This document shows, piece by piece, positions 6,177-60,829 of a stretch of DNA of 64,000 nucleotides; the stretch's first letter is position 1, and every line of letters starts with the position of its first letter. A model generated the notes under the pieces. The model had not been told where the DNA came from. It did not search any database and saw only the letters and a program-made list of their open reading frames with translations. Source of the DNA: Bdellovibrionales bacterium (lineage in GTDB: Bacteria > Bdellovibrionota > Bdellovibrionia > Bdellovibrionales > UBA1609); NCBI GenBank assembly GCA_041740515.1, contig JBGSLV010000036.1:4429-68428 (forward strand), written 5' to 3'. Position numbers and translations under genes: made by a program.

Positions 6177-6212
6177 AAAATAAGTAAGGTTTAATCTCAA
6201 AATTACTTAGCC

Positions 6213-6584: not shown

Positions 6585-6752
6585 AATAAGCCCTCGGCAA
6601 TTGTTTTATTTTAGTTAATTCAACCACCATTTAATGACTAGGATCAAGTGAAGTAAAGGGTTTACCCAAAAATCATTATACTTATGGATTGCAAAAATGT
6701 TGAAATATGTTACTTGCCCTAATAAGTCATTTAAACCCTTGAAGGAGATTTT

Positions 6753-7043: not shown

Positions 7044-7084
7044 ATTTATAAGTTTTAGCAAAAATTATGTTTAATTAAAAATTT

Positions 7085-7115
7085 ACAAATCCTGTGTTTG
7101 AAACACAGGATTTGT
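7085..7115. terminator. bidirectional rho-independent terminator between convergent genes
   Basis: Perfect 14-bp stem, ACAAATCCTGTGTT (7085-7098) / AACACAGGATTTGT (7102-7115), with a 3-nt loop. A T-run follows on the minus strand and a weaker one on the plus strand. Confidence 0.7.
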
Positions 7116-7136
7116 GGTTTAAAGAAAACCACTTTG

Positions 7137-16419: not shown

Positions 16420-16812
16420 ATTGTATATATCGGAATTGATTAACGTAAAGTTTATTAAACCATTGAAATTTAAAACTATTTTCTTACAAACCCAGTAACG
16501 CAACAATGTAATTTTATTTTCGCCCATCTTAGCCTGAAGTCGCACTTTAATACGTCAAAAACAAAAGAAGAAAACAAGATATCAAAGCTTTTGTCTCATA
16601 TTTATACGTTCTTTTAAATTTACATAAACCTTAGACATCAATCCTTGGTAGATCTAGGTCTTCTAAAGAGTATAAAGCTTGGTTTGAAAAACTACGATAA
16701 ACCGATTATAGTTGGTTTTAGGTAGATGCCTAAACAGTCTCATTTCTATTTTGAAAGTTCAAAGTAGATTCAAAAAAAACTAACCCATTGGTAATTATGG
16801 CTAAACGAAAAA

Positions 16813-22435: not shown

Positions 22436-23643
22436 ATCAAACACTTCCAAGATCCATCTTCTGCACATTCTTGAGACCAGTCTTTGAGCTTGAGAGCTTT
22501 TTTAAACATTTCTGGCGTTTTAATTTGCTGCAAATATTGTTTAGCCTTTGTTACTTTACCAATTTTTACAGCACAGTAAGCCAAAGCATAAATTAGGGAC
22601 TCATCTTCGAGTAAACCTTGACGGTTCAATTCATCTTTTAAAAAATAGGCTTCGTGAAAATTTGCAGCTTTTATTTCTAAGGCGAATCTTTGTTTAGTTT
22701 TTTTCTTGGCATCAAGTACTTTCGAGTTAAAATATTTAGCTAAAACAAGATCATTGTTTTTAAGCAAAACCTCGGCGGCTTGATAAGCGTATTTGGCATC
22801 TAAATTCGCAGCTCGTAAATACAAATCTTTTGCGGGATAAAGGCTATTTTGAGCATAATATATATACGCCAATTCCGAAGTTATATCGGCATTTAGAGGA
22901 TTAACTGCAAGTTCAGCTTCAAGAAGTTTTTTTGCAAGATGTAATTCATTTTTTTGTTTTAAGAGATTAACTAAAAACAAAAAGTATGTCTGATCAAAAT
23001 CTTTAGTAGCAGATATTAAGCTTTGGCCTTCAAGATAAAGTTCATGCAATAGCCCAAGATCGGCAAAGTACAAAGCTTTTTGTTTGATGAGATTTGAACT
23101 TCTTGGGAACTTTTGTAAAGCTCGGCTTAATATATCAAAAGCCTTATCTTGTTTTTTTAAACCCCAATAACTACTACTTAAAATCAAGTAGGATTTTTCC
23201 GTTCGATTTTTTTGTAACCTTAACGCTGAAATAGCACTTTCAAATTCATTAAGTGCAAAGTGCGATTGCGCCATAAAAGTTGCTATGGGTGTTTGATAGT
23301 CAACTTCGCCGGTGGGGTTTATAAATTTTAATTTTTTTTCAGCCTGCCTGTAATACTCTAAAGCTTTCACATATTTTTTACTTTCAAAAGCCAACATGCC
23401 TTGATAAAAATAATATCGAACCTGATCCAATGGATTTAAATGAGCAAGATTTATAGACTTAAATAAAGTTTTAGCTTTTTTAAATTCAGAATTTTTTATC
23501 AACACTTCGATAGAATTAACTTCGATTGATGGTTTTAAATCAGTCTGAACAGATGGACTTTTTATCTTAGCCAAAACTTCAAATGGTGTAATAAATCCAA
23601 GGATGAACCAAAGCAGCATCACATAACTAAAAATAGCTTTCAT
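22432..23643 (-). CDS. periplasmic TPR-repeat protein (TtpD-like position in the TonB2-type operon)
   Basis: Signal peptide plus multiple TPR-like A..YY..G / A...Y..A helices. Sits immediately after tonB. Confidence 0.7.
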   Translation of the reverse strand: MKAIFSYVMLLWFILGFITPFEVLAKIKSPSVQTDLKPSIEVNSIEVLIKNSEFKKAKTLFKSINLAHLNPLDQVRYYFYQGMLAFESKKYVKALEYYRQAEKKLKFINPTGEVDYQTPIATFMAQSHFALNEFESAISALRLQKNRTEKSYLILSSSYWGLKKQDKAFDILSRALQKFPRSSNLIKQKALYFADLGLLHELYLEGQSLISATKDFDQTYFLFLVNLLKQKNELHLAKKLLEAELAVNPLNADITSELAYIYYAQNSLYPAKDLYLRAANLDAKYAYQAAEVLLKNNDLVLAKYFNSKVLDAKKKTKQRFALEIKAANFHEAYFLKDELNRQGLLEDESLIYALAYCAVKIGKVTKAKQYLQQIKTPEMFKKALKLKDWSQECAEDGSWKCLI

Positions 23644-23670: not shown

Positions 23671-24312
23671 CTACTCAAGTGCAAAATTAATGGTTTGATT
23701 CAACCAAACGGCAACCTTTTTACCTTTGTACTCTGCGGGTTGAAAGCGCCATTGACTGACACTGGCTTGAGCTGCGGCTTCAAAGACACCCTTGGGACTA
23801 GCTTTCAGTATATTAACTTTTTCAACTTGACCTAACTCACTGACCAATAAACTGACTTCGACAAAACCTTGAATGCCTTTCTCTGCGGCTGAAGCCGGAT
23901 AATTAAGTTCAGGCTGAGTTAAAGATTTTGGCAAAACATCAACGGCTTGAGCCGACATCACGCCGTCATTAGCGCCATTAAGCAATGCTTGACCTGCACT
24001 TAAATCCAATTCAAGGGAAGGTAAGCCAAATGAAAATCCCTCTAGCACTTGATCTAGCTCTGGGCTTAGGTCAGAGCTTTTTTTTGGTTCTGTCGAGGCC
24101 TTAGGTTGTTCTTGCGCTTGTTTTTTTTCTAAAACTTCAAATCGAGTCGTCGATTTTGCAGCATAATTTTTATTAAACGATTTTTTTTGGTTTAAGTACT
24201 GCAGCAAGGCTAAAATTAAAAACGTACATACTAAGCCAAATAGTGTGGCTTGCAGATAAATTTTAGTTGTAGGTTTAACATGATTAAAAATCATTATATC
24301 CTTAAGCTCCAA
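23671..24312 (-). CDS. tonB: TonB-family energy transducer
   Basis: N-terminal TM anchor, a K/P/E/Q-rich linker, and a C-terminal TonB fold motif YPASAAEKGIQGFVEVSLLVSELGQVEKVNILKASPKGVFEAAAQASVSQWRFQP. An alternative start at 24294 avoids the 11-nt overlap with exbD. Confidence 0.85.
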   Translation of the reverse strand: MELKDIMIFNHVKPTTKIYLQATLFGLVCTFLILALLQYLNQKKSFNKNYAAKSTTRFEVLEKKQAQEQPKASTEPKKSSDLSPELDQVLEGFSFGLPSLELDLSAGQALLNGANDGVMSAQAVDVLPKSLTQPELNYPASAAEKGIQGFVEVSLLVSELGQVEKVNILKASPKGVFEAAAQASVSQWRFQPAEYKGKKVAVWLNQTINFALE

Positions 24313-24715
24313 ACTCTTGATCTGTGGCTACACCAATATCTTTAGCACCAGCCAAACGACACTGATCAACCACTTCAATTAAAAGCTCTGACTCCACACT
24401 TTTATCAACCAAAACTAAAATAGGACTGTTTTTGTCTTCTTTTAAGGCTTCACGAATTCGACTCTGAATCATCCAAGCTTTGACGGCTTCACCATTTACA
24501 TAAATGTTTTTAAGAGGATCAATAGTGACACGAATAGATTTTGTGTCGGCGCTTTCGGCACTTGAAGCTCCTGGTCGGTCTAAGTCAATTTTCATATCTT
24601 TAACAAATGTCGTGCTGACCATAAAAAAGATTAATAAAATAAAAACCATATCCACTAAAGATGTGACATCGACAGAATCCGTACTCTCTTCAACCCTTTG
24701 TCTTGATCGTTTCAT
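24302..24715 (-). CDS. exbD: ExbD/TolR-family biopolymer transport protein
   Basis: 137 aa with VDVTSLVDMVFILLIFFMVSTTF, a single TM helix and a periplasmic domain. Confidence 0.9.
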   Translation of the reverse strand: MKRSRQRVEESTDSVDVTSLVDMVFILLIFFMVSTTFVKDMKIDLDRPGASSAESADTKSIRVTIDPLKNIYVNGEAVKAWMIQSRIREALKEDKNSPILVLVDKSVESELLIEVVDQCRLAGAKDIGVATDQEFGA

Positions 24716-24757
24716 ATTCTAATCCTTTAAAAAAGAATTTTACTTAAAAACTAGTAT

Positions 24758-25213
24758 TTAAGTTTTGGATATTCCTTGGATAATGGGTGGAAAAGCTAAC
24801 TTATTTATGCGGGTTTCAATAAATTTACTAAATAATAAACCTGGAGCTGAAATCACCAATCCCATCTGTGTGGTAAATAGAGCTTTAGAGATTCCTGAAG
24901 CTATGCCTCCAGACTGACTGTATAACTGCATTGATCCCATGGAATCAAAAGTTTCAATCATTCCGGAAACAGTTCCTAACAAACCCAAAAGTGGAGCCAC
25001 CATCAATAAACTTTTAATCAGTGAGGTGTATTGATCTTGATGGGTTTGATATAGCCTTTGATCTTCATAATCAAAGGTGTGAGATTTAATTTGATGATTA
25101 AAATATTGGTATAGACAAAATCGAAAGCCTAAACAAAACCACAGGATTAGAGCCGCTAGACCTAAGGGCCACATCACCCAACCCCCATCTATAAAAAAAT
25201 CTATGAAAAACAT
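24758..25213 (-). CDS. exbB: short MotA/TolQ/ExbB-family proton channel subunit
   Basis: 151 aa, 3 TM helices, with PLLGLLGTVSGMIETF and ISKALFTTQMGLVISAP motifs. Confidence 0.85.
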   Translation of the reverse strand: MFFIDFFIDGGWVMWPLGLAALILWFCLGFRFCLYQYFNHQIKSHTFDYEDQRLYQTHQDQYTSLIKSLLMVAPLLGLLGTVSGMIETFDSMGSMQLYSQSGGIASGISKALFTTQMGLVISAPGLLFSKFIETRINKLAFPPIIQGISKT

Positions 25214-37189: not shown

Positions 37190-38167
37190 ATGACTATTGA
37201 TTTCACAGTGATCTTTAATCTGATGGGTAGCTTAGCTATTTTTCTTTTTGCGATTGAATATCTTGCCGATGCTTTAAAAAATCTTGATCTTGAAAATTTA
37301 AAAAAATGGTTACTTTACTCTTCTAAAACGCCGACCAGAGGTCTTATTACCGGTGCTATAACCACAACCCTTCTAGACTCTTCTTCGGTTGTGATTATTT
37401 TTTTAATCACTTTTGTGGATGCAGGTTTGATAAGTTTTTCTAATTCTTTGGGTATAGTCTTAGGAGCTAATATTGGAACAACTATTTCTAGTCAAATCAT
37501 AGCTTTTCAGATTGGTGACTATGCCGCTTTACCTCTTATAGTTGCCGTTTTCACAAAACTTCTGGTCTCTAGTAAAAAAGCTCAGTGGATGTGCCAATTT
37601 GTAATTGGCGTTAGTTTGATATTTTTTAGTTTACATCTTATGAATTTATCAGTTTTGCCTTATAAAAATTCTGCCGAACTGCAGTCGTGGATGGCAGGTT
37701 TAAATAATCCTTACACAGGTGTCCTTATTGGAGCTTTTATAACTCTTATCATCCAATCCTCTTCAGCTACTGTAGCAATTGCGATCACTCTAGCTAGTCA
37801 AGGCATGATGTCTTTGGATGCAGGGATAGCTATTATGCTTGGATCAGAGATCGGCACATGCTCTGACACTTTACTGGCTACTATTGGTCGATCCAGAGAA
37901 GCCGTACGAATTGGTATGTTCCACCTTTTTTACAATATTTTTGCAGTTATAATGGGACTAATAACTTTCGCATGGCTCAAAGGCTTTGTTGTATGGGTTG
38001 ATGGCGGTGGAGCTAATACAGCCCGAATGATTGCCAATGCTCACGTGGCTTTTAATGTGGGAGGCGCTTTGATCTTTTTACTTTTAATTCCTGTGTGTCG
38101 AAAAATCTTACTGTTAACCCTTCCTCAAAAACCTGCGAAATTAACACCAAAAATTTTAGCGCAGTAA
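37190..38167 (+). CDS. Na/Pi-cotransporter family (PF02690-like) membrane protein, short form lacking a PhoU-like tail
   Basis: GSLAIFLFAIEYL, LLDSSSVVIIF, GANIGTT and IQSSSATVAIAI repeats are typical of the NptA-related family. Confidence 0.75.
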   Translation: MTIDFTVIFNLMGSLAIFLFAIEYLADALKNLDLENLKKWLLYSSKTPTRGLITGAITTTLLDSSSVVIIFLITFVDAGLISFSNSLGIVLGANIGTTISSQIIAFQIGDYAALPLIVAVFTKLLVSSKKAQWMCQFVIGVSLIFFSLHLMNLSVLPYKNSAELQSWMAGLNNPYTGVLIGAFITLIIQSSSATVAIAITLASQGMMSLDAGIAIMLGSEIGTCSDTLLATIGRSREAVRIGMFHLFYNIFAVIMGLITFAWLKGFVVWVDGGGANTARMIANAHVAFNVGGALIFLLLIPVCRKILLLTLPQKPAKLTPKILAQ

Positions 38168-38189
38168 TTATTTTCTACGCGTCATACTA

Positions 38190-38221
38190 TTGACCCTGTA
38201 GTTAAGTACAGGGTTTAAAGT
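38190..38221 (+). promoter_or_regulatory. MerR-type promoter with 19-20-bp spacer and perfect dyad operator
   Basis: TTGACC (38190-38195), dyad ACCCTGTA-N6-TACAGGGT (38193-38214), then TTAAAG/TAAAGT (38215-38221). Closely resembles CadR/PbrR/ZntR-type operators (ACCCTATAG...CTACAGGGT). The ATG at 38228 lies about 7 nt after the -10 and has no SD. Confidence 0.6.
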
Positions 38222-38227
38222 TAAATT

Positions 38228-38647
38228 ATGAAAGCGAAATCAAACACTAGTTTAACTATTGGCAAAGTTGCAAAGCTGGCCCATGTAAATTTAGAGACAG
38301 TGCGCTTTTATGAAGCTAAAGGTTTAATCGAAAAACCTATTAAAAGCGGCGCATTTAGATATTATAGTTTAGACCACATAAAAAAAATAAAATTTGTAAA
38401 AAAAGCGCAGGCACTGGGATTTACTCTCGCTGAAGCCAAAAGTTTATTGGACTTAAATTTAACGAAGCAAGCTAAGTGTAAAGATGTGTTAACTAAAACC
38501 CAAATTAAGATTTTAGAAATAGAGCAAAAAATTGCAGATTTAAAAAAAATGCAAGCTTCACTTCGAAAACTTTCCAAGTGCTGTGTAGATCAAGAGGTCT
38601 TATTATCTGAATGCCCTATTCTTGACGCTTTTGGAGCCACTATATGA
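38228..38647 (+). CDS. MerR-family metal(loid)-responsive transcriptional regulator
   Basis: HTH TIGKVAKLAHVNLETVRFYEAKGLI, coiled-coil dimerisation helix, and Cys84, Cys118, Cys119 and Cys129 (KCCVDQEVLLSECPILD) in positions analogous to the MerR/ZntR metal ligands. Confidence 0.85.
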   Translation: MKAKSNTSLTIGKVAKLAHVNLETVRFYEAKGLIEKPIKSGAFRYYSLDHIKKIKFVKKAQALGFTLAEAKSLLDLNLTKQAKCKDVLTKTQIKILEIEQKIADLKKMQASLRKLSKCCVDQEVLLSECPILDAFGATI

Positions 38648-39162
38648 CTATCAATATAAAATCGACATTAAGCCATGAATCGACAAATCTGCAGCCTAAG
38701 GCCTTAAAAATTTTATTCTTATGCACTGGGAACTCTTGTCGATCTCAGATGGCCGAGGGATGGGCTAAATATTATTTTCCTAATCAGGAAAATTATTTGT
38801 TTTTTTCCGCAGGGACAACCAAGCACGGCATGAACCAAAGAGCTATTCAAGTTATGCAAGAAGTTGGCGTAGATATCTCTTCCCACTATTCAAAAACTGT
38901 TGAAGATTTAAGAGCAAGTTATACAGATCCTAGGGCTTCCGAACTGTTATTTGATTTAGTTATTACCGTATGTTCTGAGGCTCATGAAAATTGCCCCTAT
39001 ATTCCTGCTCAACATATTCTACACATGGGTTTTGAAGACCCACCAAGACTCACGAAAAATTTAAGTCAAGAAGAAGAGATCTTAGAAGTGTATCGTCGAA
39101 TCCGTGACGAGATTAAACTCGCCGTTAAAAACTTTGATTTTTATAGCTTGGAGTTTAAATGA
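38644..39162 (+). CDS. arsC: arsenate reductase, LMW-PTP/thioredoxin-coupled type
   Basis: CTGNSCRSQMAEGW P-loop plus the downstream Cys pair VCSEAHENCP (C-x6-C, like S. aureus ArsC Cys82/Cys89). ATGA overlap with the merR-like stop. Confidence 0.9.
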   Translation: MTINIKSTLSHESTNLQPKALKILFLCTGNSCRSQMAEGWAKYYFPNQENYLFFSAGTTKHGMNQRAIQVMQEVGVDISSHYSKTVEDLRASYTDPRASELLFDLVITVCSEAHENCPYIPAQHILHMGFEDPPRLTKNLSQEEEILEVYRRIRDEIKLAVKNFDFYSLEFK

Positions 39163-40193
39163 AAAACAATGACTTAAAGATAGGTTTTTTTGAACAGTAC
39201 TTAACTATTTGGGTTGGTGCTTGCATCATTTTAGGATTAATTTTAGGCCAATTTTTTGGACCTATCTTTGAAGATTTAAGTTCTATGACGATTTCCAATG
39301 TAAATCTACCCGTAGCTTTATTGGTTTGGATGATGATCTTTCCCATGATGGTGCAAGTGAATTTCAGCGCCATAAAAGATGTGGGAAAAAATCCTAAAGG
39401 TTTAATTTTAACCCTAGCCATCAATTGGCTCATCAAGCCTTTCACAATGGCTTTGATCGCTTGGATTTTTTTTACAATGGTCTTTGCTTCCTATTTGACG
39501 GATCTACAAATAGAGCAATATATGGCGGGAGCTATTTTATTAGGTGCAGCACCTTGCACCGCTATGGTTTTTGTCTGGTCCTATTTAACCAAAGGTGATC
39601 CCGAATACACGCTGGTGCAAGTAGCCATCAATGATTTAGTTTTGCTCGTGGCTTTTATACCTATCGTTAAATTTCTTTTAGGGGTCACCAATATTGAAAT
39701 TCCATTTGCTACCTTATTTTATTCGGTATTTATCTTTGTTGTTATTCCACTTGTGGCTGGGCTCATCACCAACCGGATTTTAATAAATACCAAAGGGCAA
39801 ACTTGGTTTGAATCTGTGTTTTTACCTCAACTTAAGCCTGTATCTATTTTAGCTCTTCTTAGCACTCTGATTTTACTCTTTGCTTTTCAAGGTGAAACTA
39901 TTTTGTCGTCACCTCTTCATATCTTGATCATTGCCGTTCCACTTACTGTGCAAACCTATTTAATATTTTTTGTCAGCTGGTATTTAGGAAAGAAGTTAAA
40001 GCTCACTCATAAGGTTTTAGCCCCCGCAGCCATGATAGGTGCCAGTAATTTTTTCGAACTGGCCGTAGCTGTGGCTATAGCTTTATTTGGGTTAAATTCT
40101 GGGGCGGCTCTAGCTACAGTCGTAGGTGTATTGATCGAAGTGCCCGTCATGTTATCCCTTGTGAAGCTAGCAAATCGATGGCGTTTTGAATGA
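39159..40193 (+). CDS. acr3: ACR3-family arsenite efflux permease
   Basis: FFEQYLTIWV N-terminus, the conserved GAAPCTAMVFVWS motif and 10 TM helices. ATGA overlap with arsC. Confidence 0.9.
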   Translation: MKNNDLKIGFFEQYLTIWVGACIILGLILGQFFGPIFEDLSSMTISNVNLPVALLVWMMIFPMMVQVNFSAIKDVGKNPKGLILTLAINWLIKPFTMALIAWIFFTMVFASYLTDLQIEQYMAGAILLGAAPCTAMVFVWSYLTKGDPEYTLVQVAINDLVLLVAFIPIVKFLLGVTNIEIPFATLFYSVFIFVVIPLVAGLITNRILINTKGQTWFESVFLPQLKPVSILALLSTLILLFAFQGETILSSPLHILIIAVPLTVQTYLIFFVSWYLGKKLKLTHKVLAPAAMIGASNFFELAVAVAIALFGLNSGAALATVVGVLIEVPVMLSLVKLANRWRFE

Positions 40194-40236
40194 TTCTTTC
40201 TTGACAGCTTAAAGCTGGGCTAAGCACACTTAAGTG

Positions 40237-41097
40237 ATGGGCTTTAAATGCGAGCACAATACCATCTCCCTTCGAAATTTAAGCTGGGCCATTGGTATAA
40301 ATTTAGTTTTATCGATAGTACAGATTCTAGCGGGCCTGCTGTCAGGAAGTTTATCCCTGATTGCGGACGCCATTCATAACCTCAGTGATGCTATCAGTTT
40401 ATTAATAGCTTTTGTTGCCGAAAAAATATCGCATTGGCCTGCCAATCAAGACTTAAATTTTGGCTATGGACGAGCTCAAATTATTGGGGCGTTAATTAAC
40501 AGTTTGTCATTAATCCTAGTGGCTATATATATTATTTACGAAGTCATTTTAAGATTTTTAGAACCTAAACCCATTAATGGATGGTGGGTTATAATCGTGG
40601 CAAGCTTTGCTTTAGTCATTGATTTACTGACTGCCAAATTGACCCATGAGGGCTCAAAACACAACATCAATATGCGAGCGGCTTTTATACATAATGTAAC
40701 CGATGCTTTGGCCTCCATTGTCGTCATTTTTTCTGGCGTGTTGGTGCTACTTTATGACTTTTACATTTTTGATCTACTGGCCAGCCTATTAATTGCTGGA
40801 TATATTTGTTATCAATCGATAGGTTTAATTCAAGATTGTCTTCGACATTTAATGCAAGCTGTTCCTGCTGACATCAATTATCAAGATGTGCAAAAAACAA
40901 TCTTGAATTGTACTGAAATCAAAGAGATCAAAAATTTATACATTTGGTCCATGAATGAAAGCCAAATAGCACTTCAGGCCCATTTAATATTACAAGACCA
41001 CAAGACCATAAATCAAAGTGAGCTGCTTGTAAGGCTTAAAAAAAGCATGTTAGAAAATTACAAAATTCAGATGACTACTTTTGAGCTTTCACCTTAA
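40237..41097 (+). CDS. cation diffusion facilitator (CzcD/ZitB-like) divalent-metal exporter
   Basis: Six TM helices, IADAIHNLSDA and HNVTDALAS motifs, and a C-terminal cytoplasmic domain. A GTG at 40234 is an alternative start. Confidence 0.85.
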   Translation: MGFKCEHNTISLRNLSWAIGINLVLSIVQILAGLLSGSLSLIADAIHNLSDAISLLIAFVAEKISHWPANQDLNFGYGRAQIIGALINSLSLILVAIYIIYEVILRFLEPKPINGWWVIIVASFALVIDLLTAKLTHEGSKHNINMRAAFIHNVTDALASIVVIFSGVLVLLYDFYIFDLLASLLIAGYICYQSIGLIQDCLRHLMQAVPADINYQDVQKTILNCTEIKEIKNLYIWSMNESQIALQAHLILQDHKTINQSELLVRLKKSMLENYKIQMTTFELSP

Positions 41098-44462: not shown

Positions 44463-47400
44463 TTAGGGTCCTGATTCCACTAGTATCTGCGAACTTCGAA
44501 TAGTTATTTGACCTTGTGATGGTGAAACTCGTGATACAAATTTTTCATTTATTGGAAGACCCACAATCTCTGGACTTCGATAGTTATTTAAAGTCGCAGG
44601 GTTGATAAAAATTTGTGATCCCGTCACTAAATTTAATCCTAGATTGCCAGAACTTGCACTATGATACATTAAATCCACTGACCCTTGCGATAAACTGTCG
44701 GTATCGGCTGTCACTTGATAATATACTTTAGGATTAGTAAATTGGCTTCGATCAAAAATAGCGCGTTGATAAGTAAGTATGGTTTCAACTCCAATCATGC
44801 GATTTAAAGATCCAATTCTATAAACTAAACTTGTTTTTGATAAATTTCTAAGTTTTACCCAAAGCCCCGCTTTGTGAATTCGGACGGAACCAGTTGAGCA
44901 GTAATATTCACATCGTAAAACTAATCTGTAATTGTGCCCTTCATTGACCCCACGAAATTGTAAAACACCTTCGTTAAATGGAATACTAGTTATTATTACA
45001 CCAGGTCCTGAAAATCGTGTTTCGGTCATAGCTACTAATTGGCTTGTGTTGTTATTGTAAAGCCCTAATATTCCTTCGGCTCCATTTACTGTTGAAATTA
45101 ATGTCTCAAGTTCCCAAGCGTTATACTCAATGATTTTATCTAAACTTAAAGCTCTTCTGGTAAATAGACTAGCTTGGGGGAAATCATGATAGACAGTGTC
45201 TGATGTGCTATAAGCAAAAACATCAGCGTCAACATTGATTGGGGATTCATCAGAGCTTAGCAAAGGATAATAGATTTTTGTCTTAGTAGCATTGACTTGA
45301 TTAACAAGTAATTTCGCCGAGTACACCGACAGCTGCCCATCTGAAGTCGTCTGTTCAAGCTCTAGTCGAAGTTTCTGTGCCCCCGAATTTATAGTTATAG
45401 GGGATTTAAAAACAGTAGGTTCAAAAGTATTTGCTGGAATTGTTATAAAATCCATCATCACATCTGACTCATTAACAATACCTACAGATCTAGCCGTTGT
45501 ATCAAAATTAGTTCCTATAACTTCAAACTCTAACCCTGTAACACCATCGTAGTCGTTAGTGTCAAAAGTTGTTAAAGTTCTATTGAAAGCTATGTTGTTA
45601 GAGCCACTAGATGCAATCGCTAAGTCTGTTAACTCAATAGGAACTTGAAAGCGTAAAGATCCATCTCTAATGATACTGACAGTGTTGGAACTCACCGATC
45701 TGCGACCATTTGCATACACTCCTCTTACGGCATAATAATAAGTCACAGCTGCGACCACATTACTGTCTAATGCTGAAGTTGTTACAGAAGTTTGTACCAC
45801 GCCGTAAGGACCTGAAGAGGATTCGGATCTTAAAACTTCATACTGTGTCACGGATGGGATAACATCCCAATTTAATTCAACAGCTGAGGTACCGTTTACG
45901 GCTGTTAAATTTGTCGGACCACTCACTAACAGGACCGAAACTTGATTGGAATTGTTAGAAATAACGCCTGAACTATTTACCGTTCGAAGTACATAAAAAT
46001 AACTATCCCCAGGAATTACCGTGGTGTCCAAGTACTCTGTGGTAGCTGGAGGTAACGTAGCTATGACACTGTAAGGTCCCCCTGAATTTACGGATCGAAG
46101 CAGTTCATAACTTGCGATGCTAGGAACATTCGGCCAATATAGCTCTACAGAATTTGTTGACTGCGAAGCTAAATTTAATCCAACCGGAGTTTGAGGTCGT
46201 ATTGATACATTCACAGGGTCACTGATCAGCGAGGTTGCCATTTCACTGCCGTTGATCGCTATAGCTTGATACTGATAATAATAGGTCTGAGCTGGTGCAA
46301 TTGAAGCGTCGACATAAGAGGTCGTTGGTAACCCTGAAGCAATGAGTTCAAAATTAACAGCGTTTGTTGAACGATATAAATTATAGGTATTTGCATTTAC
46401 GACACTTGCCCAAGATATTCCAATTGAAGTGGTAGTGTTAAATTGCACATCTGGCTTAGGCGTGCTCATTTCAGACTGGATCATGACTTCATTAGAAGGT
46501 GCACTTTCATTAAAGCCATTCAAAGCTGTAACTCTAAAATAATACGTAGTTCCTGCTACTAAACCACTGACAATAGTCCCTGAAGAGCTTGTAGTGTTCT
46601 GGATCGGGGCCCCGTAAACTCCGGAAGTTGTTGATCGATAAATATTAAAAGAAGTTCGCCCAGAGACATCCGTCCAAGTTAAATTCACATCATTTCCAGA
46701 TCCAGTGTTTTCAGCATGCAATTGCACTGGAGACAGTGGTATACGCCCAGGACTAAAACCAACGCTAATTGGCGAAAGCAATTGCAGTGGAGGATAGTTT
46801 GTCTTAATCCGATAAAAATATACGTTGCCATTGCTTGCAGTATTATCAGTGAAGTTTGTCATTGCATAGTTTGTGCTAATGGCACTAAAGGTTGATCCAT
46901 CCGTTGATCTTTCAATATCATAATCAATAGCCCCTGCCATTGGTGTCCATGACAAAGTCACTTGATTATTACCCGTTATTCCACTGGGGGCTGAAGCTGG
47001 CATAAATGTCCATGCTTGAGCTACTGGTGAAGTTTGAGGAACACCGGCAACAATGGCCACCACTCTGATGTAATATAAACTTTGAGGATTTAAGCCAAAT
47101 ATGGTTGCCGTATTCGTTGCTGTTGTGGTTGCTATTGTATATGGACCTGCAATGTTTAAGGCCCGTTCCACACGATAAGAAGTTGTGGCTGGAACACTTG
47201 GCCAATCTACACGCATGAACGTATCACCAAGAACCGTTAAGCTGATATTAGAGGGAAGGGTGGAAGTAGTTATTTGACCTAACACAACTTGAGATGATTG
47301 ACCCTCGGTTAAATCCGAAAAGCGCGCACGTACTCGGTAATAATAACCCGTGTTCACGTTGACTGCAGTGTCTTGATAAGTTGCCGTAGAGGCAACATCG

Positions 47401-50400
47401 TAATTGACAAATGGACCATCAAAAGAATTGGCTCTGGCTATGACATAGTCTTGCGCGCCAGCTACAGCATTCCAAGATAGTTGCAAACGATCCGATTGAG
47501 GAGCCATTGCAAAACCAGTTATAGGTGCATTTCTAAATCCAACAGTATTTGTAGGAGCTGTCTCATGACTTCCCCAAACCGCTGTGATTCGAAAAAAATT
47601 CATACCAGTTAATAAAGGTGCGGAACTCATAAATGTAGTGTTAATATTTTGGACAAAAGTAAATGGTCCAAGTTCATTGGCGGATCGGTACAATCTGAAA
47701 TTATTAAAATGTGAAGGTGATATCCAATCCAGCTGAACTCTATTATCTGCAGCAATGAAATTTAAAATCAAATTTCCCGGCGCAGATGGATTAACGTTTG
47801 CTCTTGCCGCTTTGATAGCAGTTGGATAACCGACGTAAATTTTATCGCCATCGATATCAAAAAGATAAGCTTGAACATAATAATAAGCCCCATCCATATT
47901 GGCTGTAGGATCAACCAAAGAACGTGGTGTATAGCCATCCACTAAAACTGAAAAATTTTTGTCAGGGTCTGAAGATTTATATACAGTGTAGAATAAATCC
48001 CCGGAATTGTAGGACCCAAAAGTGCTTGGTGCCGTCCAAGAAAGAATCACTTCGCCATCTCCAGGAGCAAGATTTAATTGTGGCGAATCCGAAGAGTAAA
48101 AACCGACAATATTTGAGCCCCCACTTTCAGAAAGTCCCCATCCTGCTCTGACACGAATGTAATTGATGTTATCATTGCCAAAACCACAATCATCAAATGA
48201 AGCTAAATCAGTAGAACCCATAAGCCCTAAAGAATTTTTTGGAAAGCCTTTATAAACATTAAATGTGTCATAGTAAGAAGATCTGGACCAATTTATTTTT
48301 AAACCCTGACCACCACCGCAACTAGCAATGGCATTAAGTGGAGTGATTGACAATAAGGTCGGAGCACTTGGATTAGCTTTTGGGACAGCTGAAGCTATAT
48401 TAGACTGGGAACTTTCACCGGCAGGATTACTGGCTTTGATTAAATAAAAATAAGTTTGTCCGTTCGACAAACCTGTATCTGCATAAAAAGTTGAAGTCGT
48501 TGTAACTCCTAGATCTGTAAATGGTCCGGCAAATTGTAAAGATCGAAAAATTCGATAAGTGACATTTTCAGGAAATCCACTCCAAGTCAAATTCACTCTT
48601 GAATCACCAACAGTAGTGACCAAATTATTAGAAGCAATTGGTGTTGGAGCTGCAATTGTGATACTAACTTCGGGGGAACTTTGGCTTCGCCCCGTAACAT
48701 TGGATGCAAACACGCGGTAATAATACGTCTCGCCATCAGTAATTTGTAAATCGTTATAGTTATTTCCAATCTGTTGACTGCTTAATACTGTATAAGGGCC
48801 ACCCGACTGGTTTGATCTTTCCACTGTGTATCTAGGAGTGGGATTTGCAAGTCCATCAGGAAGCCAAGACAAATTGACCGAACCATTTACATTGTTACTA
48901 GCCACCAAATTCGCTGGCGGTAAATTGTTATGTGTAAAATTGGTTAAAAATCGGCATGCAGATAAAGTTCCGACTTCATTTATTGTTTGGCCATACAAAG
49001 CCATTGTTGCATTCGGGTTTACTTGTATTGGCACACCAGTGGTTGTCAACAGAGTGGGATTTGCGGAAGTGACTAAACTTGTGCAGATGGAATTAGCATA
49101 AATACTTAAGTTAACTCGATTCATAAAATCTGGACTTAATGTGTAAGACCCAAACAGTCTAATCTCTTGGTTATAAGACGGAGAAGTAGGTGTAGTGCTT
49201 TGAAAGACAGGTGCGGCAGGTACAAGAATATTGTAAGTGTAAAAAGTTAAAAGCGTACAATTACTTTCATTACCTGCCGCATCGAAGGCTTTAGCATAGA
49301 TGGAAGTTTCAGCGTTGATATTCACATCAATCGTTATTCCTGTTGCATTAAATTGATTTGGTGTACCCTCACCCAGTTTTGTTACACAGGAGTCACTGTC
49401 AAAGAATTCAACTCTTGAAGGTGGCAACTGACTGGCTGGATTATCTAACACATCCCCTGAAATAGTCGGTGTCGAGGATTGATTGTTTGGTGAAATGGGA
49501 GCAATCCCGCTGTATGTTGGATTTACTGGAGACACATTATTATGAATATAAGTCGTTAAAAAAACACAAGCTGAAAAGTTACCGTAAATATCAACAGCGC
49601 GAGCAAAAAGCTGAGTGGTCGAATTTAAAGGCAAATTAGCAACAACTCCCGATGCTGTATATTGCCCTCTGGAAGCTGATGCAATCTGTGTGGTACAGGT
49701 TGGGTTGGTAAAAATCCGTATCGTTTCAATTGTAGGATCAGCTGTTCCTAAGATAGCAGGAGTACTAGAAAATCTTGAAGGCGAAGCAGGTACTGTGAAA
49801 GCAAATGTAGGATTCGGCGCAGGCACACTTGAATGTTCATAACTGGCATGGAAGGTACAATCGGACATATTACCTTCAAGATCAGAAACGCGGACGTAGA
49901 TGGGAGTGGTCGAATTGGTATCTAAGTTTAGCAAAATACCATTCACTTCATAATCATCGATATCCCCTTGACCCACACTGACAGTGCATAATTCATCTTT
50001 ATAGAAAAACAAATTTACTGTTCGAGCTGCCGCTTGCCCGATGATCAAAGGAGTTGTTGTTAAATTCGTAGGCGAAAGCGGATCTGTTCTATTAAACACT
50101 GGGTTTTCAGGAGGTGTAGTATTATGAATATAACTTGTTAAAAATGTGCAGTCCGAGCCATTATCAGAGCTATCAAAAGCTCGTGCGTAAATATTGGTTG
50201 TGTCATTGCTGCGTACATTTGTAACGGCACCAATTCCAATAAAATCAGGACGATTTCCAAAACCGATAGTGTTTAAACACAAAGCCGAATCATAAAAAAT
50301 AATCTCATCTGTATCGCTACTTGCCGAACCAAAAATTCTTGGCAAAGTCTTTTGGTTTGTGGGCGACATGGGACTTGCCCCTAAATATCCAAGAGCAGCT

Positions 50401-51350
50401 GGGGGTAAATTGTCATGAGTGTAAGTGGTAAATAAAGCGCATACGGATGGGGCTCCCATCCCATCAACGGATCTTGCATAAATAACTGTGGTTGCATTTT
50501 CAGGCAAAGTTACATCAAAGCCTGCCGTCTCAAAGTCACTGGGATCACCCGAAACCAAAAGGTTCATACAACCAGAATCTGTGTACAACGAAACTGTGAC
50601 TGAACCCACCGAGGTTGTACCTCTTATATTAGGCGCAAAAGAAGCTTTTGAAGGTGACAAAGGTGTAATGGCTAACAATTCAGGAAAGGGACTATTTACA
50701 TTTGAATGCGTAAAATCTGTCATGTAAACACAGCCCGACAATGTGCCAATAGGATCTCTGGTTCTTGCATAAATAGATGTTGTTTGGTTTAAAGGAAGCT
50801 GCACAGCTATGCCAGATTGCGCAAAATTACTTGCTGACCCCGAAGCTAAAGCTTGTGTGCAAATAGCGTCACTAAAAAATTCAACCGTTGACGACAATGG
50901 CAGTGCCTGCCCAAACAAACCCGGAGCCGTAGTAAATCTTGAGGGTGATTGGGGCGATATGGCAGTAAAAATTGGCTCCCCAGGAACTAAAGGGTCATGA
51001 CTAAAGTTTTCAAGCAGCAAGGTACATGTATTTAAAGCTTGCGATTTCACATAAAAATCAGTGGGCACGTTCACCGGAATTTGAACTAAAATTCCCGAAC
51101 TATTAAACTGCGCTACAGTAGCTTGGCCTACACTTACAGTTTGACATAAGTTATCTGTATGTACGGTGAGCAGGTCTAAATTCAAATAATCACTTGAAGT
51201 AACGCCAATAAGTCTTATTTGGGCCAAGACACTTGTGTAATCAATAAGTTGGCTAGAAGTCAGCGATACACTTAAATCTTCAGAAGAGTTTACACGCTCA
51301 CCATCAGCACAAGAAACTTGTAGCCCAAAAGCAAACAGTAATATTAGCAA
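44463..51350 (-). CDS. giant surface lipoprotein (about 2295 aa): 8 two-Cys Ig-like modules, 12 FN3 domains and a C-terminal triple module of unknown fold
   Basis: LLFAFGLQVSC lipobox-like N-terminus. About 98-aa modules follow the pattern SP.SP....P.I.G.......V.F..D..C.......F...G..V.L..N.TT.IYAR..D..GN.S.C...T.Y.H. The FN3 units follow V.L.W......Y.[VIL].RS...GP[YF].........Y.D......Y[YF]Y.V. The annotated start is TTG and is uncertain. Confidence 0.85.
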   Translation of the reverse strand: MLILLFAFGLQVSCADGERVNSSEDLSVSLTSSQLIDYTSVLAQIRLIGVTSSDYLNLDLLTVHTDNLCQTVSVGQATVAQFNSSGILVQIPVNVPTDFYVKSQALNTCTLLLENFSHDPLVPGEPIFTAISPQSPSRFTTAPGLFGQALPLSSTVEFFSDAICTQALASGSASNFAQSGIAVQLPLNQTTSIYARTRDPIGTLSGCVYMTDFTHSNVNSPFPELLAITPLSPSKASFAPNIRGTTSVGSVTVSLYTDSGCMNLLVSGDPSDFETAGFDVTLPENATTVIYARSVDGMGAPSVCALFTTYTHDNLPPAALGYLGASPMSPTNQKTLPRIFGSASSDTDEIIFYDSALCLNTIGFGNRPDFIGIGAVTNVRSNDTTNIYARAFDSSDNGSDCTFLTSYIHNTTPPENPVFNRTDPLSPTNLTTTPLIIGQAAARTVNLFFYKDELCTVSVGQGDIDDYEVNGILLNLDTNSTTPIYVRVSDLEGNMSDCTFHASYEHSSVPAPNPTFAFTVPASPSRFSSTPAILGTADPTIETIRIFTNPTCTTQIASASRGQYTASGVVANLPLNSTTQLFARAVDIYGNFSACVFLTTYIHNNVSPVNPTYSGIAPISPNNQSSTPTISGDVLDNPASQLPPSRVEFFDSDSCVTKLGEGTPNQFNATGITIDVNINAETSIYAKAFDAAGNESNCTLLTFYTYNILVPAAPVFQSTTPTSPSYNQEIRLFGSYTLSPDFMNRVNLSIYANSICTSLVTSANPTLLTTTGVPIQVNPNATMALYGQTINEVGTLSACRFLTNFTHNNLPPANLVASNNVNGSVNLSWLPDGLANPTPRYTVERSNQSGGPYTVLSSQQIGNNYNDLQITDGETYYYRVFASNVTGRSQSSPEVSITIAAPTPIASNNLVTTVGDSRVNLTWSGFPENVTYRIFRSLQFAGPFTDLGVTTTSTFYADTGLSNGQTYFYLIKASNPAGESSQSNIASAVPKANPSAPTLLSITPLNAIASCGGGQGLKINWSRSSYYDTFNVYKGFPKNSLGLMGSTDLASFDDCGFGNDNINYIRVRAGWGLSESGGSNIVGFYSSDSPQLNLAPGDGEVILSWTAPSTFGSYNSGDLFYTVYKSSDPDKNFSVLVDGYTPRSLVDPTANMDGAYYYVQAYLFDIDGDKIYVGYPTAIKAARANVNPSAPGNLILNFIAADNRVQLDWISPSHFNNFRLYRSANELGPFTFVQNINTTFMSSAPLLTGMNFFRITAVWGSHETAPTNTVGFRNAPITGFAMAPQSDRLQLSWNAVAGAQDYVIARANSFDGPFVNYDVASTATYQDTAVNVNTGYYYRVRARFSDLTEGQSSQVVLGQITTSTLPSNISLTVLGDTFMRVDWPSVPATTSYRVERALNIAGPYTIATTTATNTATIFGLNPQSLYYIRVVAIVAGVPQTSPVAQAWTFMPASAPSGITGNNQVTLSWTPMAGAIDYDIERSTDGSTFSAISTNYAMTNFTDNTASNGNVYFYRIKTNYPPLQLLSPISVGFSPGRIPLSPVQLHAENTGSGNDVNLTWTDVSGRTSFNIYRSTTSGVYGAPIQNTTSSSGTIVSGLVAGTTYYFRVTALNGFNESAPSNEVMIQSEMSTPKPDVQFNTTTSIGISWASVVNANTYNLYRSTNAVNFELIASGLPTTSYVDASIAPAQTYYYQYQAIAINGSEMATSLISDPVNVSIRPQTPVGLNLASQSTNSVELYWPNVPSIASYELLRSVNSGGPYSVIATLPPATTEYLDTTVIPGDSYFYVLRTVNSSGVISNNSNQVSVLLVSGPTNLTAVNGTSAVELNWDVIPSVTQYEVLRSESSSGPYGVVQTSVTTSALDSNVVAAVTYYYAVRGVYANGRRSVSSNTVSIIRDGSLRFQVPIELTDLAIASSGSNNIAFNRTLTTFDTNDYDGVTGLEFEVIGTNFDTTARSVGIVNESDVMMDFITIPANTFEPTVFKSPITINSGAQKLRLELEQTTSDGQLSVYSAKLLVNQVNATKTKIYYPLLSSDESPINVDADVFAYSTSDTVYHDFPQASLFTRRALSLDKIIEYNAWELETLISTVNGAEGILGLYNNNTSQLVAMTETRFSGPGVIITSIPFNEGVLQFRGVNEGHNYRLVLRCEYYCSTGSVRIHKAGLWVKLRNLSKTSLVYRIGSLNRMIGVETILTYQRAIFDRSQFTNPKVYYQVTADTDSLSQGSVDLMYHSASSGNLGLNLVTGSQIFINPATLNNYRSPEIVGLPINEKFVSRVSPSQGQITIRSSQILVESGP

Positions 51351-51392: not shown

Positions 51393-54300
51393 TTATTGAC
51401 CTAGAAACACTTTAATGAGCGCCTCCGAATCATCTAAAATGGTTATATCCAAAATTTGATCATTATTTAAATCATCGACAGCAATATGACTTGCATTCAC
51501 ACCCGTATTAATACTAGATATAGTTGCATAGTTGCCGGTTGGTGAACCAAACAAAATGGTTAGGTTTCGTTGCATACCATTGCCAACAATAATATCTTCT
51601 CGACCATTTCCGTTCAAATCACCTTTAGCCAGTGAAGTAGGTTCAATACCTGCTGAAAAATGATTGGCTGGATTAAAAGTTCCATCGCCTCGACCTTTTA
51701 AAATACTTACCGAAGATGATATGTTATTTGATACGGCTAAATCTAAGAAACCATCCGAATCAAAAAAACCAGCAATGATACCATTGGGGCCTGATTCAAC
51801 ATCAAAGTCTGCTGTTTGAAAGGTGCCATTGCCATTGGATAAAAACACTGTGACGGAATCATCGGACTGATTTACAACAGCCACATCCAAAACGAAATCT
51901 TCATTAAAATCACCAGCGGTAATATGTGAGGGTTGTGCTCCTGAAACTGAAGTTGTTCTTGGGCCAAATGATCCATCTCCTTGCCCAGGAAGAAAGTTCA
52001 TGCGATTTGCCCCACTGCAAGTTACGGCAACATCCATTAGACCATCGTTATTAAAATCTCCATGAACTATAGATGTGGGTTGTGAATGTACGGGATAACT
52101 TCCACCTGAAGCAAAAACACCGCCCCCTTGCCCCATAAAAACCCGCACTGAGCTTGCAGCATTAAGCACAATCACTAAGTCTACTAAACCATCGTTATTT
52201 AAATCTACAAAATCGGCATCAGTAGGACTATTGCCAACGTTTAAAAATCCAAGAGAACTAAACAAACCATTTCCTAAACCTTTGTGAAGAGTTATGGAAT
52301 TTGCGGCACGATTGACAACTGCTTTATCCAAAAATCCATCATTATCCAGATCATGACTGATCACTTTTACGGGTGTATCTGACACTGAGGTTAAAAAACC
52401 AAGTATTCCATCTGTTTGACCCGGTAAAATTTGAATTTTAGTTTCCCCATTAGAAACAATCAGTAAGTCCTGAAGCATATCCTGATTAAAATCTGAAGCC
52501 ATTATGTTGATGGGATTTGATAAAGTATTAATAGATGGTCTGATATCAAATGTCCCGGTATTCAAGCCGTAAAAAATTGAAAGCGTGCTATCGCCAACAT
52601 TAGCTATCGCTAAATCAATAAAGCCGTCGGCATTCAAGTCCTTAGCACTTAGAGCAATTGGCGTCAGCCCTACACTTGTAATATCCGGAATATCAAATGT
52701 TCCATCATTTAAGTTTAGAAATACCGAAATATTATCACTCCCACTATTTGTGACAATAATATCTTGAAAAAGATCACCGTTTAAACGAGCCATGGTAACA
52801 CTTGATGGGGCCACACCTGTGCTGTAAATCACTTGTGATGAAAAACCACCACTGCCATTATTAATATAAACACTCATCGTATCATCAGATGCGTTGATAA
52901 CAGCTAAATCTTCAAAACCATCGTTATTTAAATCACCTACCGCAACTTTTGTGGGTAGAGATCCAGAAGGATAAATAGTGGGTGAGTCAAAAGTGCCATT
53001 ATTATTTCCAAATCTTATTGCAATGTTGTTAGAAGCTCCATTGACTATCACAATATCTTTATCGCCATCATTGTTAAAATCACCAATGGCTACATCAACT
53101 GGTAAAGTTTCAAGGGGATCTTGCAAAGTATTTACGGCCGCACTGAAAGAACCATTGCCAACTCCAGCTAAAAATGAAAATTGCCCAGTCCCATTACAAA
53201 CTAAAATTAAATCTTTATTGGTGTCATTATTGAAATCCGCAAACGCCATGCCCGAAGGGCCGCTGCAAAGACCAGTTAGTTTGGACTGTGTGGTAAAAAG
53301 TCCGTTGCCTCGTCCCAAAAATCTAGAAATGGTAGCTTCACTTTTGTTTAAAACAAAAATATCATTGAAACCATCATTATTAAAATCACCAACCAAAGTA
53401 TTTTCGGCACCACTACCCACATTATAATTCAAATCAAAAGCTCCTGAATTTCTACTTTGACTTGATAATAAAAAGCGAGCTTTACTTAATCCTGAAGCAA
53501 CCACATCGGGTAGAGTTCCAATTAGGGGTAAAACAGAAACATAGGATCTTGCTGCATTATACCCTTGAAGCACCGATACCGTTGCCGTTCCTGATGCATT
53601 CGTGCGACGTTCTGAAGGACCAATGATATGAACATCCCCAGCTGTTCGTTGGAAGAGGACTGGATAATTTGATACGCCATTACCAAAACGATCTACAACT
53701 CGTATACTAATAGGTTCAGAAAAACTTTGCCCGATAAATGCGGACTGATTATTTCCACTAAGAGTAGGAAACTCAAAATGATCAGCGACATCTGCTAAAA
53801 CTTGAATGTTTATCTGTTGTGAAAATCCTTGGTTGTCAGTCACAGTTAAAACATCGGTGACGCCAGCTCGGGATCCCGCCGTATAAGTACTGGTGCTTGA
53901 ATTGTAATTCGCTGTCAGCGAATTATTTTGCGTTAACACAACCGTATATGGTGCTGTCCCGCCGGTGATATTAAAAACTTCACTTTGGCCAACAACGATC
54001 TGTGGATCATTTGGGATTACGCTTAATGACTGTTTTTGCCAAACTAAATTTAAGCTGGCTTGATTACCCGCTAGATCGGTTTGTCTGATTTCAATATTGT
54101 AATTGCCGTCAGCAAATTTAGGTAAACTTATACTAAATGTCGAATTGGAACATGTCGTAGAACCTGTACCATCATTGGCTAAACTAACCAAAGCGCCTGT
54201 TTCACAGCCCCCTTGAATATTGAGTACAGCCTCGCTAGAGCTATGTGGGTTACTGGGAGGATAAGTTAAAGAAGGTTGAGAGACGCTGGTTTTTCGATAC

Positions 54301-54671
54301 CAAATAAAACTCACTGGGGCTGAAATGTTTCCCATATCATTTTGAGTTAGAAAATAATTATAAACGCCATCGGTCGTTTGGCTTAGCGCAAAAGAAAATT
54401 CAGAGTTGGAGCATATCGTTGAGGCGATCGAGGCTCCAGAGAGAGAAATTAAACTCCCCGATTTACAAAGTCCTTGAATTGATAAAGTACTTCCTTGCGA
54501 GTAATAAGGGTTTTGTGCAGGAATACTTAAAACAGGTACTTCTATATCGGGACCATTGTTAGAGCTTTGAACATTAAGATTTTGTTTACAAGATATAAAA
54601 TTAATAACAGCAAAAAATGCTGTTATTAATTTTATAATTTTAAAACTAAAGTCAACGTTCCCTATATTCAT
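51393..54671 (-). CDS. lipoprotein with two-Cys Ig-like modules, Big-like domains and about 14 FG-GAP/VCBS repeats (two integrin-alpha-like propellers)
   Basis: Lipobox FAVINFISC. GDFNNDGFNDIFVLN-type Ca-binding FG-GAP loops repeat about 14 times. The N-terminal modules contain IRQTDLAGNQAS, like the repeats of the 10924..16419 protein. Confidence 0.85.
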   Translation of the reverse strand: MNIGNVDFSFKIIKLITAFFAVINFISCKQNLNVQSSNNGPDIEVPVLSIPAQNPYYSQGSTLSIQGLCKSGSLISLSGASIASTICSNSEFSFALSQTTDGVYNYFLTQNDMGNISAPVSFIWYRKTSVSQPSLTYPPSNPHSSSEAVLNIQGGCETGALVSLANDGTGSTTCSNSTFSISLPKFADGNYNIEIRQTDLAGNQASLNLVWQKQSLSVIPNDPQIVVGQSEVFNITGGTAPYTVVLTQNNSLTANYNSSTSTYTAGSRAGVTDVLTVTDNQGFSQQINIQVLADVADHFEFPTLSGNNQSAFIGQSFSEPISIRVVDRFGNGVSNYPVLFQRTAGDVHIIGPSERRTNASGTATVSVLQGYNAARSYVSVLPLIGTLPDVVASGLSKARFLLSSQSRNSGAFDLNYNVGSGAENTLVGDFNNDGFNDIFVLNKSEATISRFLGRGNGLFTTQSKLTGLCSGPSGMAFADFNNDTNKDLILVCNGTGQFSFLAGVGNGSFSAAVNTLQDPLETLPVDVAIGDFNNDGDKDIVIVNGASNNIAIRFGNNNGTFDSPTIYPSGSLPTKVAVGDLNNDGFEDLAVINASDDTMSVYINNGSGGFSSQVIYSTGVAPSSVTMARLNGDLFQDIIVTNSGSDNISVFLNLNDGTFDIPDITSVGLTPIALSAKDLNADGFIDLAIANVGDSTLSIFYGLNTGTFDIRPSINTLSNPINIMASDFNQDMLQDLLIVSNGETKIQILPGQTDGILGFLTSVSDTPVKVISHDLDNDGFLDKAVVNRAANSITLHKGLGNGLFSSLGFLNVGNSPTDADFVDLNNDGLVDLVIVLNAASSVRVFMGQGGGVFASGGSYPVHSQPTSIVHGDFNNDGLMDVAVTCSGANRMNFLPGQGDGSFGPRTTSVSGAQPSHITAGDFNEDFVLDVAVVNQSDDSVTVFLSNGNGTFQTADFDVESGPNGIIAGFFDSDGFLDLAVSNNISSSVSILKGRGDGTFNPANHFSAGIEPTSLAKGDLNGNGREDIIVGNGMQRNLTILFGSPTGNYATISSINTGVNASHIAVDDLNNDQILDITILDDSEALIKVFLGQ

Positions 54672-60591: not shown

Positions 60592-60829
60592 CTTTACTCT
60601 CCCGCTTACGTACAAATTCTTTAACAAAATTGAACAGATATTTATCGTCATGTTATATAAAGTCCTGCAGATTCTAAGAGGACATAAGTGTTTCAATTTA
60701 AGAATAGACTAAATTTTAAGACCAAAGTTCAGAAAACAAATCTTAAGATTAGGTTAAAGGATAAATCTTCATCACTCATCCAACGTAGTGGATTTAAGTG
60801 TATCAAAATAAGAATTTATTATGTTCTGA

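Follow-up and report, generated by a model that had tools for sequence, protein, structure and literature searches.

A 64,000-nucleotide (nt) stretch of DNA from a Bdellovibrionales bacterium (assembly GCA_041740515.1, contig JBGSLV010000036.1, positions 4,429 to 68,428 of the forward strand) contains an arsenic resistance (ars) operon whose first gene encodes a 139-amino-acid (aa) regulator of the MerR family, followed by arsC and acr3. This stretch is referred to as the window throughout, and coordinates are those of the window unless a different locus is named. To our knowledge, and among those that we found, the regulators of characterized ars operons all belong to the ArsR/SmtB repressor family, and we know of no MerR-family protein that senses a metalloid. 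The operon lies within a run of five co-directional genes on the plus strand, with a promoter and operator in front of the regulator gene:

37190-38167, plus strand: Na/Pi-cotransporter-family gene (NF037997, 204 bits)
38190-38221, plus strand: MerR-type promoter, with -35 hexamer TTGACC (38190-38195), 20-nt spacer (38196-38215) and -10 hexamer TAAAGT (38216-38221)
38196-38211, no strand assigned: operator dyad CTGTAG-TTAA-GTACAG, the sole match to the dyad pattern in the 64-kb window
38228-38647, plus strand: MerR-family regulator, 139 aa (Pfam MerR_1 and MerR-DNA-bind)
38644-39162, plus strand: ArsC, thioredoxin-coupled (pI258-type, low-molecular-weight protein tyrosine phosphatase fold), 172 aa (TIGR02691 and structure alignment)
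39159-40193, plus strand: Acr3 arsenite efflux permease, 344 aa (TIGR00832 equivalog)
40234-41097, plus strand: cation diffusion facilitator (CDF) exporter, ZitB/CzcD-like (TIGR01297, 231 bits)

The regulator gene, arsC, and acr3 are chained by two ATGA start/stop overlaps, at 38644-38647 and 39159-39162, which were read directly from the sequence and agree with those described in the original prediction for this locus. The first overlap is not an artifact of start-codon choice, because ATG 38644 is the sole canonical in-frame start upstream of the ArsC P-loop. Intergenic gaps of 60 nt and 40 nt separate the Na/Pi gene from the regulator gene and acr3 from the CDF gene, respectively. Acr3 scores well above the equivalog cut-off of its family model (400 bits against 283), which identifies it as the arsenite efflux permease of an ars operon, and it shares 67-76% identity with the Acr3 proteins of other MerR-headed operons. 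ArsC falls under the cut-off of its model (128 bits against 174); its identity as an arsenate reductase of the thioredoxin type, as originally proposed, comes from a full-length alignment with the solved thioredoxin-type ArsC structures 1JL3 and 1LJL, which shows conservation of the P-loop CTGNSCRS and of the C-X6-C pair, with C27, C110, and C117 aligned to C10, C82, and C89 of both structures. The protein is also approximately 30 aa longer than its homologs in related operons (138-145 aa), and relative to the solved structures its N terminus is extended by 20 aa and 11 residues are inserted at about residues 88-100. A recent horizontal island was considered and is not supported, the GC content of 0.35-0.39 over 31-46 kb being equal to that of the surroundings.

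The promoter in front of the regulator gene is of a kind that a standard sigma-70 scan with a spacer of 16-18 nt does not report, since its spacer is overlong at 20 nt, and no promoter was returned by such a scan upstream of the regulator. It was instead recognized by visual inspection, and comparison with related loci served as a check. MerR-type promoters are characterized by an overlong spacer that encloses a dyad, and both elements are found together at 38190-38221, where the extended arms of the dyad read ACCCTGTA (38193-38200) and TACAGGGT (38207-38214). The pattern CYGTASNNNNGTACRG matches a single place in the 64-kb window, directly in front of the regulator gene. The start codon, ATG 38228, sits 6 nt past the -10 hexamer, so the mRNA is probably leaderless. 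Nearly all of about 30 related loci share this arrangement: TTGACT-CCGTACnnnnGTACGG is followed by a -10 hexamer 4 nt after the dyad, giving the same 20-nt spacer, and an in-frame ATG lies 5-8 nt past the -10 hexamer. Locus L111 is an exception, with an 18-nt leader carrying AGGAG. The dyad of the relatives is CCGTAC-N4-GTACGG, essentially that of the Tn501 mer operator, and the window dyad CTGTAG...GTACAG is a variant of it. It is highly probable that the regulator controls the operon from this MerR-type promoter; regulator, operator, and promoter together fit in approximately 460 bp.

That a MerR-family gene rather than an arsR gene stands first in the operon, as had been proposed, is evident from its domains. 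Pfam matches to MerR_1 (E = 6e-16) and MerR (E = 3.5e-9) over residues 10-75 identify a MerR-type winged helix-turn-helix, MerR-DNA-bind matches over residues 52-115 (E = 6e-15), and no ArsR-type winged helix (HTH_5 or HTH_20) is matched in Pfam or NCBIfam. The alignment with solved MerR and CueR structures is end to end over residues 10-134 and includes the dimerization helix and the C-terminal metal loop. The best NCBIfam match is the MerR model TIGR02051, at 116.3 bits against an equivalog cut-off of 150.85. Other models are likewise matched under their cut-offs: NF010315 at 83 bits (cut-off 261), two ZntR models at 104.8 (143) and 96.8 (168), CadR-PbrR at 81.3 (151), and CueR at 94.1 (147). 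The closest solved structures are mercury sensors, namely Bacillus megaterium MerR (4UA1, E = 3e-22) and Tn501 MerR (5CRL, E = 2e-20), and in a collection of 5.8 billion proteins the best non-self match is only 57% identical.

The translation contains Cys84, Cys118, Cys119, and Cys129 at the positions given in the original prediction. C84, C119, and C129 align with the three Hg(II) ligands of the solved MerRs (C82, C117, and C126 in Tn501). The ligand loop is one residue longer than in those structures, and C118 is extra. A vicinal cysteine pair combined with a third cysteine is a recurrent S3 motif for As(III) in several types of ArsR (AfArsR C95/C96/C102 and CgArsR C15/C16/C55). A ZntR or CadR identity was rejected on the scores and the operator type. 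Judged from its sequence, the regulator belongs to the mercury-MerR lineage and not to the ZntR/CadR lineage, because its closest structures are mercury MerRs, its operator is of the mer type, and the three Hg ligand cysteines are present.

To place the operon in a wider context, a profile of the three closest proteins was scanned over one genome per species, yielding 80 loci. Eleven of these have at least 50% identity, and all eleven come from Bdellovibrionota: Bacteriovorax, Halobacteriovorax, and metagenome-assembled genomes (MAGs) of Bacteriovoracia, Pseudobdellovibrionaceae, and Oligoflexia. The regulator is directly followed by arsC and acr3 in nine of the eleven and by arsH alone in a tenth, Bacteriovorax sp. 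DB6_IX; the eleventh, L015, heads an operon of MerC-like, thioredoxin-like, and CopZ-N-terminal-like genes. No ars genes stand beside the regulator in any of the 69 loci whose identity does not exceed 47%, where the neighbors are mainly mercury genes, with MerT (16 loci), HMA (7), MerA-type reductase (4), and MerC (4). Linkage to ars genes is therefore found in 10 of 11 loci in the closer group versus 0 of 69 in the more distant one (Fisher p = 6.7e-12). Conversely, linkage to merT, merP, merA, or merC is absent from the window neighborhood and from beside clade members, with the MerC-like gene of L015 excepted.

Clustering of the neighbors defines a conserved module of the MerR-like regulator, ArsC, Acr3, and ArsH, to which an ArsI/CadI-like protein is sometimes added; the flanks of the module are unrelated between loci. 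The ArsH assignment is an equivalog match (361 bits against a cut-off of 292). L015 itself (a Bacteriovoracaceae MAG; 5989-7355) encodes a relative of the regulator with 53% identity that has a single cysteine instead of the CC pair, and its MerC-like gene is a weak match of 54 bits. It may represent the ancestral mercury-type state of the clade, although it could instead be a reversal.

Metagenomic sequences extend the same picture. The closest metagenomic homolog (P0002) heads an operon of the order merR-arsC-acr3-arsH-(57 aa)-glyoxalase, and the scan added further clade members (L087, L088, and L091) together with more distant MerR-like proteins, at 42-51% identity, that head other arsenic genes. 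The MerR-like gene precedes acr3-arsC in L093 (Acr3 440 bits), arsC-acr3 in L140, whose Acr3 is 72% identical to that of the window, ArsI/CadI and then a MIP channel in L092, ArsI/CadI and then arsC in L099 and L111, the arsenite methyltransferase ArsM in L108 (369 bits against a cut-off of 263), and a series of ArsI-like, arsC, permease, and ArsE-type thioredoxin genes in L124. MIP channels and an ArsP-like permease are among the partners of the metagenomic relatives.

Five of these loci (L099, L108, L111, L124, and L140) form a second subtype, in which the third Hg ligand position is occupied by Tyr or Phe (KQ[YF]KVQECF) and new cysteines appear in the ECF motif and, in all but L140, in a C-terminal CxC. 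Because its third Hg ligand is replaced, this subtype cannot form the canonical MerR mercury site; despite the lost ligand, its regulators are still linked to arsenic genes. Sampling from the Acr3 side gave a concordant result, with three of four homologs at 73-76% identity lying in MerR-LMWPc-SBF-FMN_red operons and the fourth having no regulator gene upstream.

In a neighbor-joining tree rooted on CueR (100 bootstraps), in which 13 ars-linked proteins and L015 were placed among MerRs, these fourteen proteins form one Bdellovibrionota clade with a bootstrap of 81/100. Its surroundings in the tree are mercury MerRs, among them the two with solved structures, from which it follows that the ars association arose inside a Bdellovibrionota MerR lineage.

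On this basis, we consider it probable that the 139-aa protein is a MerR-type activator that, within the mercury-MerR lineage, came to govern arsenic resistance. Gene context likewise makes an arsenic species the probable physiological inducer. The uncharacterized MerR-type metalloid sensor that was originally envisaged thus finds support in comparative genomics, through the promoter, the ars linkage, and the absence of a detectable ArsR gene from the window and 25 related loci, with As(III) as the suggested effector.

By homology with MerR, a dimer of the regulator would sit on the dyad CTGTAG-N4-GTACAG, in the overlong spacer (20 nt) of the promoter that drives its own gene (38190-38221). 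As long as no effector is bound, the -35 and -10 elements would be out of phase and the promoter kept in a poor conformation. A cysteine cluster at the dimer interface, predicted to comprise Cys84 of one subunit, Cys119 and Cys129 of the other, and the clade-specific Cys118, would then bind a thiophilic metalloid. As(III) is the most likely ligand, and Sb(III) would probably be bound as well. Methylarsenite is included as a possible ligand because ArsH, ArsI, ArsM, and ArsP are frequent partners of these regulators. Ligand binding would untwist the DNA and switch on transcription of a presumably leaderless mRNA starting at or beside ATG 38228. This transcript would encode the regulator itself, implying positive autoregulation since the regulator is the first cistron, and, through the two ATGA overlaps, ArsC, which would reduce As(V) to As(III), and Acr3, which would export As(III), both translationally coupled to the regulator. 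Transcription would probably continue into the CDF gene in this genome.

Extending this to the relatives, we lean, if slightly, toward the view that a sizeable, uncharacterized branch of mercury MerRs has been converted into activators that sense arsenic or organoarsenicals and replace ArsR, in Bdellovibrionota and other uncultured bacteria, with at least two cysteine architectures. In that reading, the first architecture is C84/CC118-119/C129, as in the window, and the second combines replacement of the third Hg ligand by Tyr or Phe with new cysteines in the ECF motif and a C-terminal CxC. If true, these architectures would be a counterpart to the As(III) sites of ArsR proteins, which have arisen repeatedly and independently.

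Several observations weigh against an arsenic-sensing activator at this locus. We infer As(III) as the effector from gene context alone. The window subtype keeps all three canonical Hg(II) ligands, and a Hg(II) response of this subtype is for that reason possible. The window regulator is also the most divergent member of the clade, its operator is altered by C-to-T and C-to-G changes, the ECF-motif cysteine is missing from the protein, and a CDF gene takes the place that arsH has in the other operons; owing to these four features, its specificity may have drifted. In the tree, the ars-linked set alone is not robustly monophyletic (bootstrap 17/100), because L015, with its MerC-type context, falls inside it. 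Locus L090 (599-1349) encodes a CC-type regulator behind a mer-type operator, followed by an 82-aa open reading frame (ORF) instead of ars genes; since the contig ends 330 nt after this ORF, ars genes may lie beyond it. Finally, the lineage L169-L171 carries, 470 nt upstream and on the other strand, an ArsR-family gene for a Cys-rich protein of 99 aa, and an ArsR could be encoded elsewhere in any of these genomes.

The observations on the Hg ligands bear on a first alternative, in which the protein is a genuine Hg(II) or broad soft-metal sensor and the ars genes are placed under a mercury-responsive promoter, or the operon is induced through cross-talk between Hg and As. The alignment of the three ligands, the mercury MerRs as closest structures, MerR as the best NCBIfam model, the mer-type operator, and the presence in the same clade of L015, which heads a MerC-like operon, would all fit such a sensor. 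So would the nearest report that we found in the literature, which concerns a Pseudomonas in which a MerR2 box is predicted upstream of arsR and Ars proteins are induced by Hg (PMC10433974). However, none of the approximately 30 ars-linked regulators has merA, merT, or merP beside it, in contrast to distant relatives, the score of the regulator remains under the MerR equivalog cut-off (116 versus 150.85), and the sister ars-linked subtype has lost the third Hg ligand. In addition, we know of no role against mercury for Acr3, ArsC, ArsH, ArsM, or ArsI, which we also count against this explanation. A mercury or soft-metal sensor therefore appears unlikely.

A second alternative retains ArsR as the primary switch. 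An ArsR-family repressor would then be encoded elsewhere in the genome, and the MerR-like protein would be accessory or redundant, for example, sensing thiol or redox stress caused by arsenic. The view of this genome extends over 64 kb, and the Cys-rich ArsR-family gene near one related lineage lends this explanation some weight. Against it, no ArsR-type helix-turn-helix was detected when the small ORFs of the window were scanned with Pfam. Searches by tblastn were made with four ArsR/SmtB probes and with mercury-type loci as positive controls; no match had an E value below 0.3 in the window or below 0.065 in 25 ars-linked loci (259 kb), and the same probes recovered ArsR genes in several of the control loci, which confirms their usefulness as probes. 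The regulator is, moreover, translationally coupled to arsC behind a complete MerR-type promoter, which is the sole recognizable promoter for the operon. We accordingly regard a primary ArsR as improbable. The presence of an ArsR-family gene acting at the locus had been named as an outcome that would overturn the original prediction; none was found in the window or the 25 related loci, and one was found near the operon in L169-L171.

The gene of that lineage lies at 2385-2684 of L169 on the minus strand, behind a 71-aa ORF, and its product carries LCQC, TCC, and a C-terminal DCCR. L169-L171 represents the sole ars-linked locus type with both regulators, and its operon has the order MerR-arsC-acr3-arsH-arsP.

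The two transporter genes that flank the module were both drawn into the original account of the locus. The distances assigned to them hold, 60 nt upstream for the Na/Pi transporter and 40 nt downstream for the CDF exporter. Their membership in the system does not: they adjoin the module in this window only and in none of about 30 other loci, for which reason both are rejected as parts of the system and are regarded as incidental neighbors outside the conserved module. The gap between acr3 and the CDF gene contains no predicted terminator and no mer-type dyad, so the CDF gene is probably read through in this genome, and its co-transcription with the operon, possibly occurring, would be specific to this genome.

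Two palindromes, both short and perfect, lie in the same gap, CAGCTTAAAGCTG (40205-40217) and CACTTAAGTG (40227-40236), the latter overlapping the CDF start codon. A perfect TTGACA is present at 40201-40206, with no usable -10 element at 16-20 nt. These elements could be a separate operator for the CDF gene or could be due to chance.

A third explanation holds that the protein senses Zn, Cd, or Pb in the manner of ZntR, CadR, and PbrR and that it actually controls the downstream CDF gene. This explanation draws on ZntR model scores of 97-105 bits, a CC motif that resembles C114/C115 of ZntR, and a Zn/Cd-type exporter following acr3 with no predicted terminator between, but is very improbable given that MerR is closer than ZntR, CadR, and PbrR in both NCBIfam and Protein Data Bank searches, that the CDF gene is adjacent in none of the related loci, and that no mer-type dyad precedes it. 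Control of the CDF gene in place of the ars genes, the other outcome that had been named as fatal to the original prediction, is accordingly unlikely.

Elsewhere in the window, five very large ORFs of 1092-2295 aa lie on the minus strand (10924-16545, 18875-22468, 44463-51350, 51393-54671, and 54730-60696). The 2295-aa ORF contains many repeat units of approximately 90 aa that resemble fibronectin-III or Ig-like modules. The five presumably encode surface proteins, and they make up about 40% of the window. A cluster of TonB (C-terminal domain), ExbD-like, and ExbB/MotA-family genes is located at 23671-25213, also on the minus strand.

In our assessment, both the regulator family and the operon type are known; what is new is their combination and, presumably, the class of effector. 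No model in NCBIfam release 20 captures this regulator clade. A MerR-family regulator of ars genes was not described in the full-text literature that we searched, subscription-only papers being outside this scope and prior publication possible. MerR goes unmentioned in a review of how ars genes are distributed (PMC6205960), and another review gives ArsR as the regulator of the minimal ars operon (PMC6138428). If the clade senses As(III), it would add a new effector class to the MerR family and would represent a natural case in which metal specificity changed from Hg to As while the operator was conserved, with intermediate forms available. It would also offer low-background, activator-type arsenic switches that operate by the well-understood mechanism of DNA distortion, as an alternative to ArsR for biosensors.

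Among known systems, MerR is the closest counterpart. Like the MerRs of Tn501 (5CRL) and B. megaterium (4UA1), the regulator has a winged helix-turn-helix, a dimerization helix, and a C-terminal Cys loop with three aligned cysteines, and it is associated with a CCGTAC-N4-GTACGG-type dyad inside a spacer of 19-20 nt. As here, the regulator gene comes first in the mer operons of Gram-positive bacteria, which it controls. It differs from MerR in that arsC-acr3(-arsH) rather than merTPA would be controlled, in its score under the MerR equivalog cut-off, in the extra vicinal Cys118 and the additional residue of the ligand loop, in an apparently leaderless mRNA, and in a presumed metalloid effector.

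With ZntR, CadR, and PbrR, the regulator shares membership of the MerR family, the CC pair in the case of ZntR, and the proximity of a cation exporter, such exporters often being under the control of these proteins and here represented by the downstream CDF gene. These regulators are, however, more distant in sequence than MerR, and the CDF linkage is limited to the window whereas the ars linkage is conserved. With ArsR, the regulator has in common its position as the first gene of an ars operon, a presumed coupling of As(III) to arsC and acr3 expression, and the use of cysteine thiolates. The two differ in fold, ArsR having the ArsR/SmtB winged helix and the present protein a MerR-type winged helix-turn-helix with a coiled coil, and they differ in operator. 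In mechanism, ArsR is a repressor released by its ligand, whereas the protein described here is a predicted activator that would act by distorting the DNA of a suboptimal promoter.

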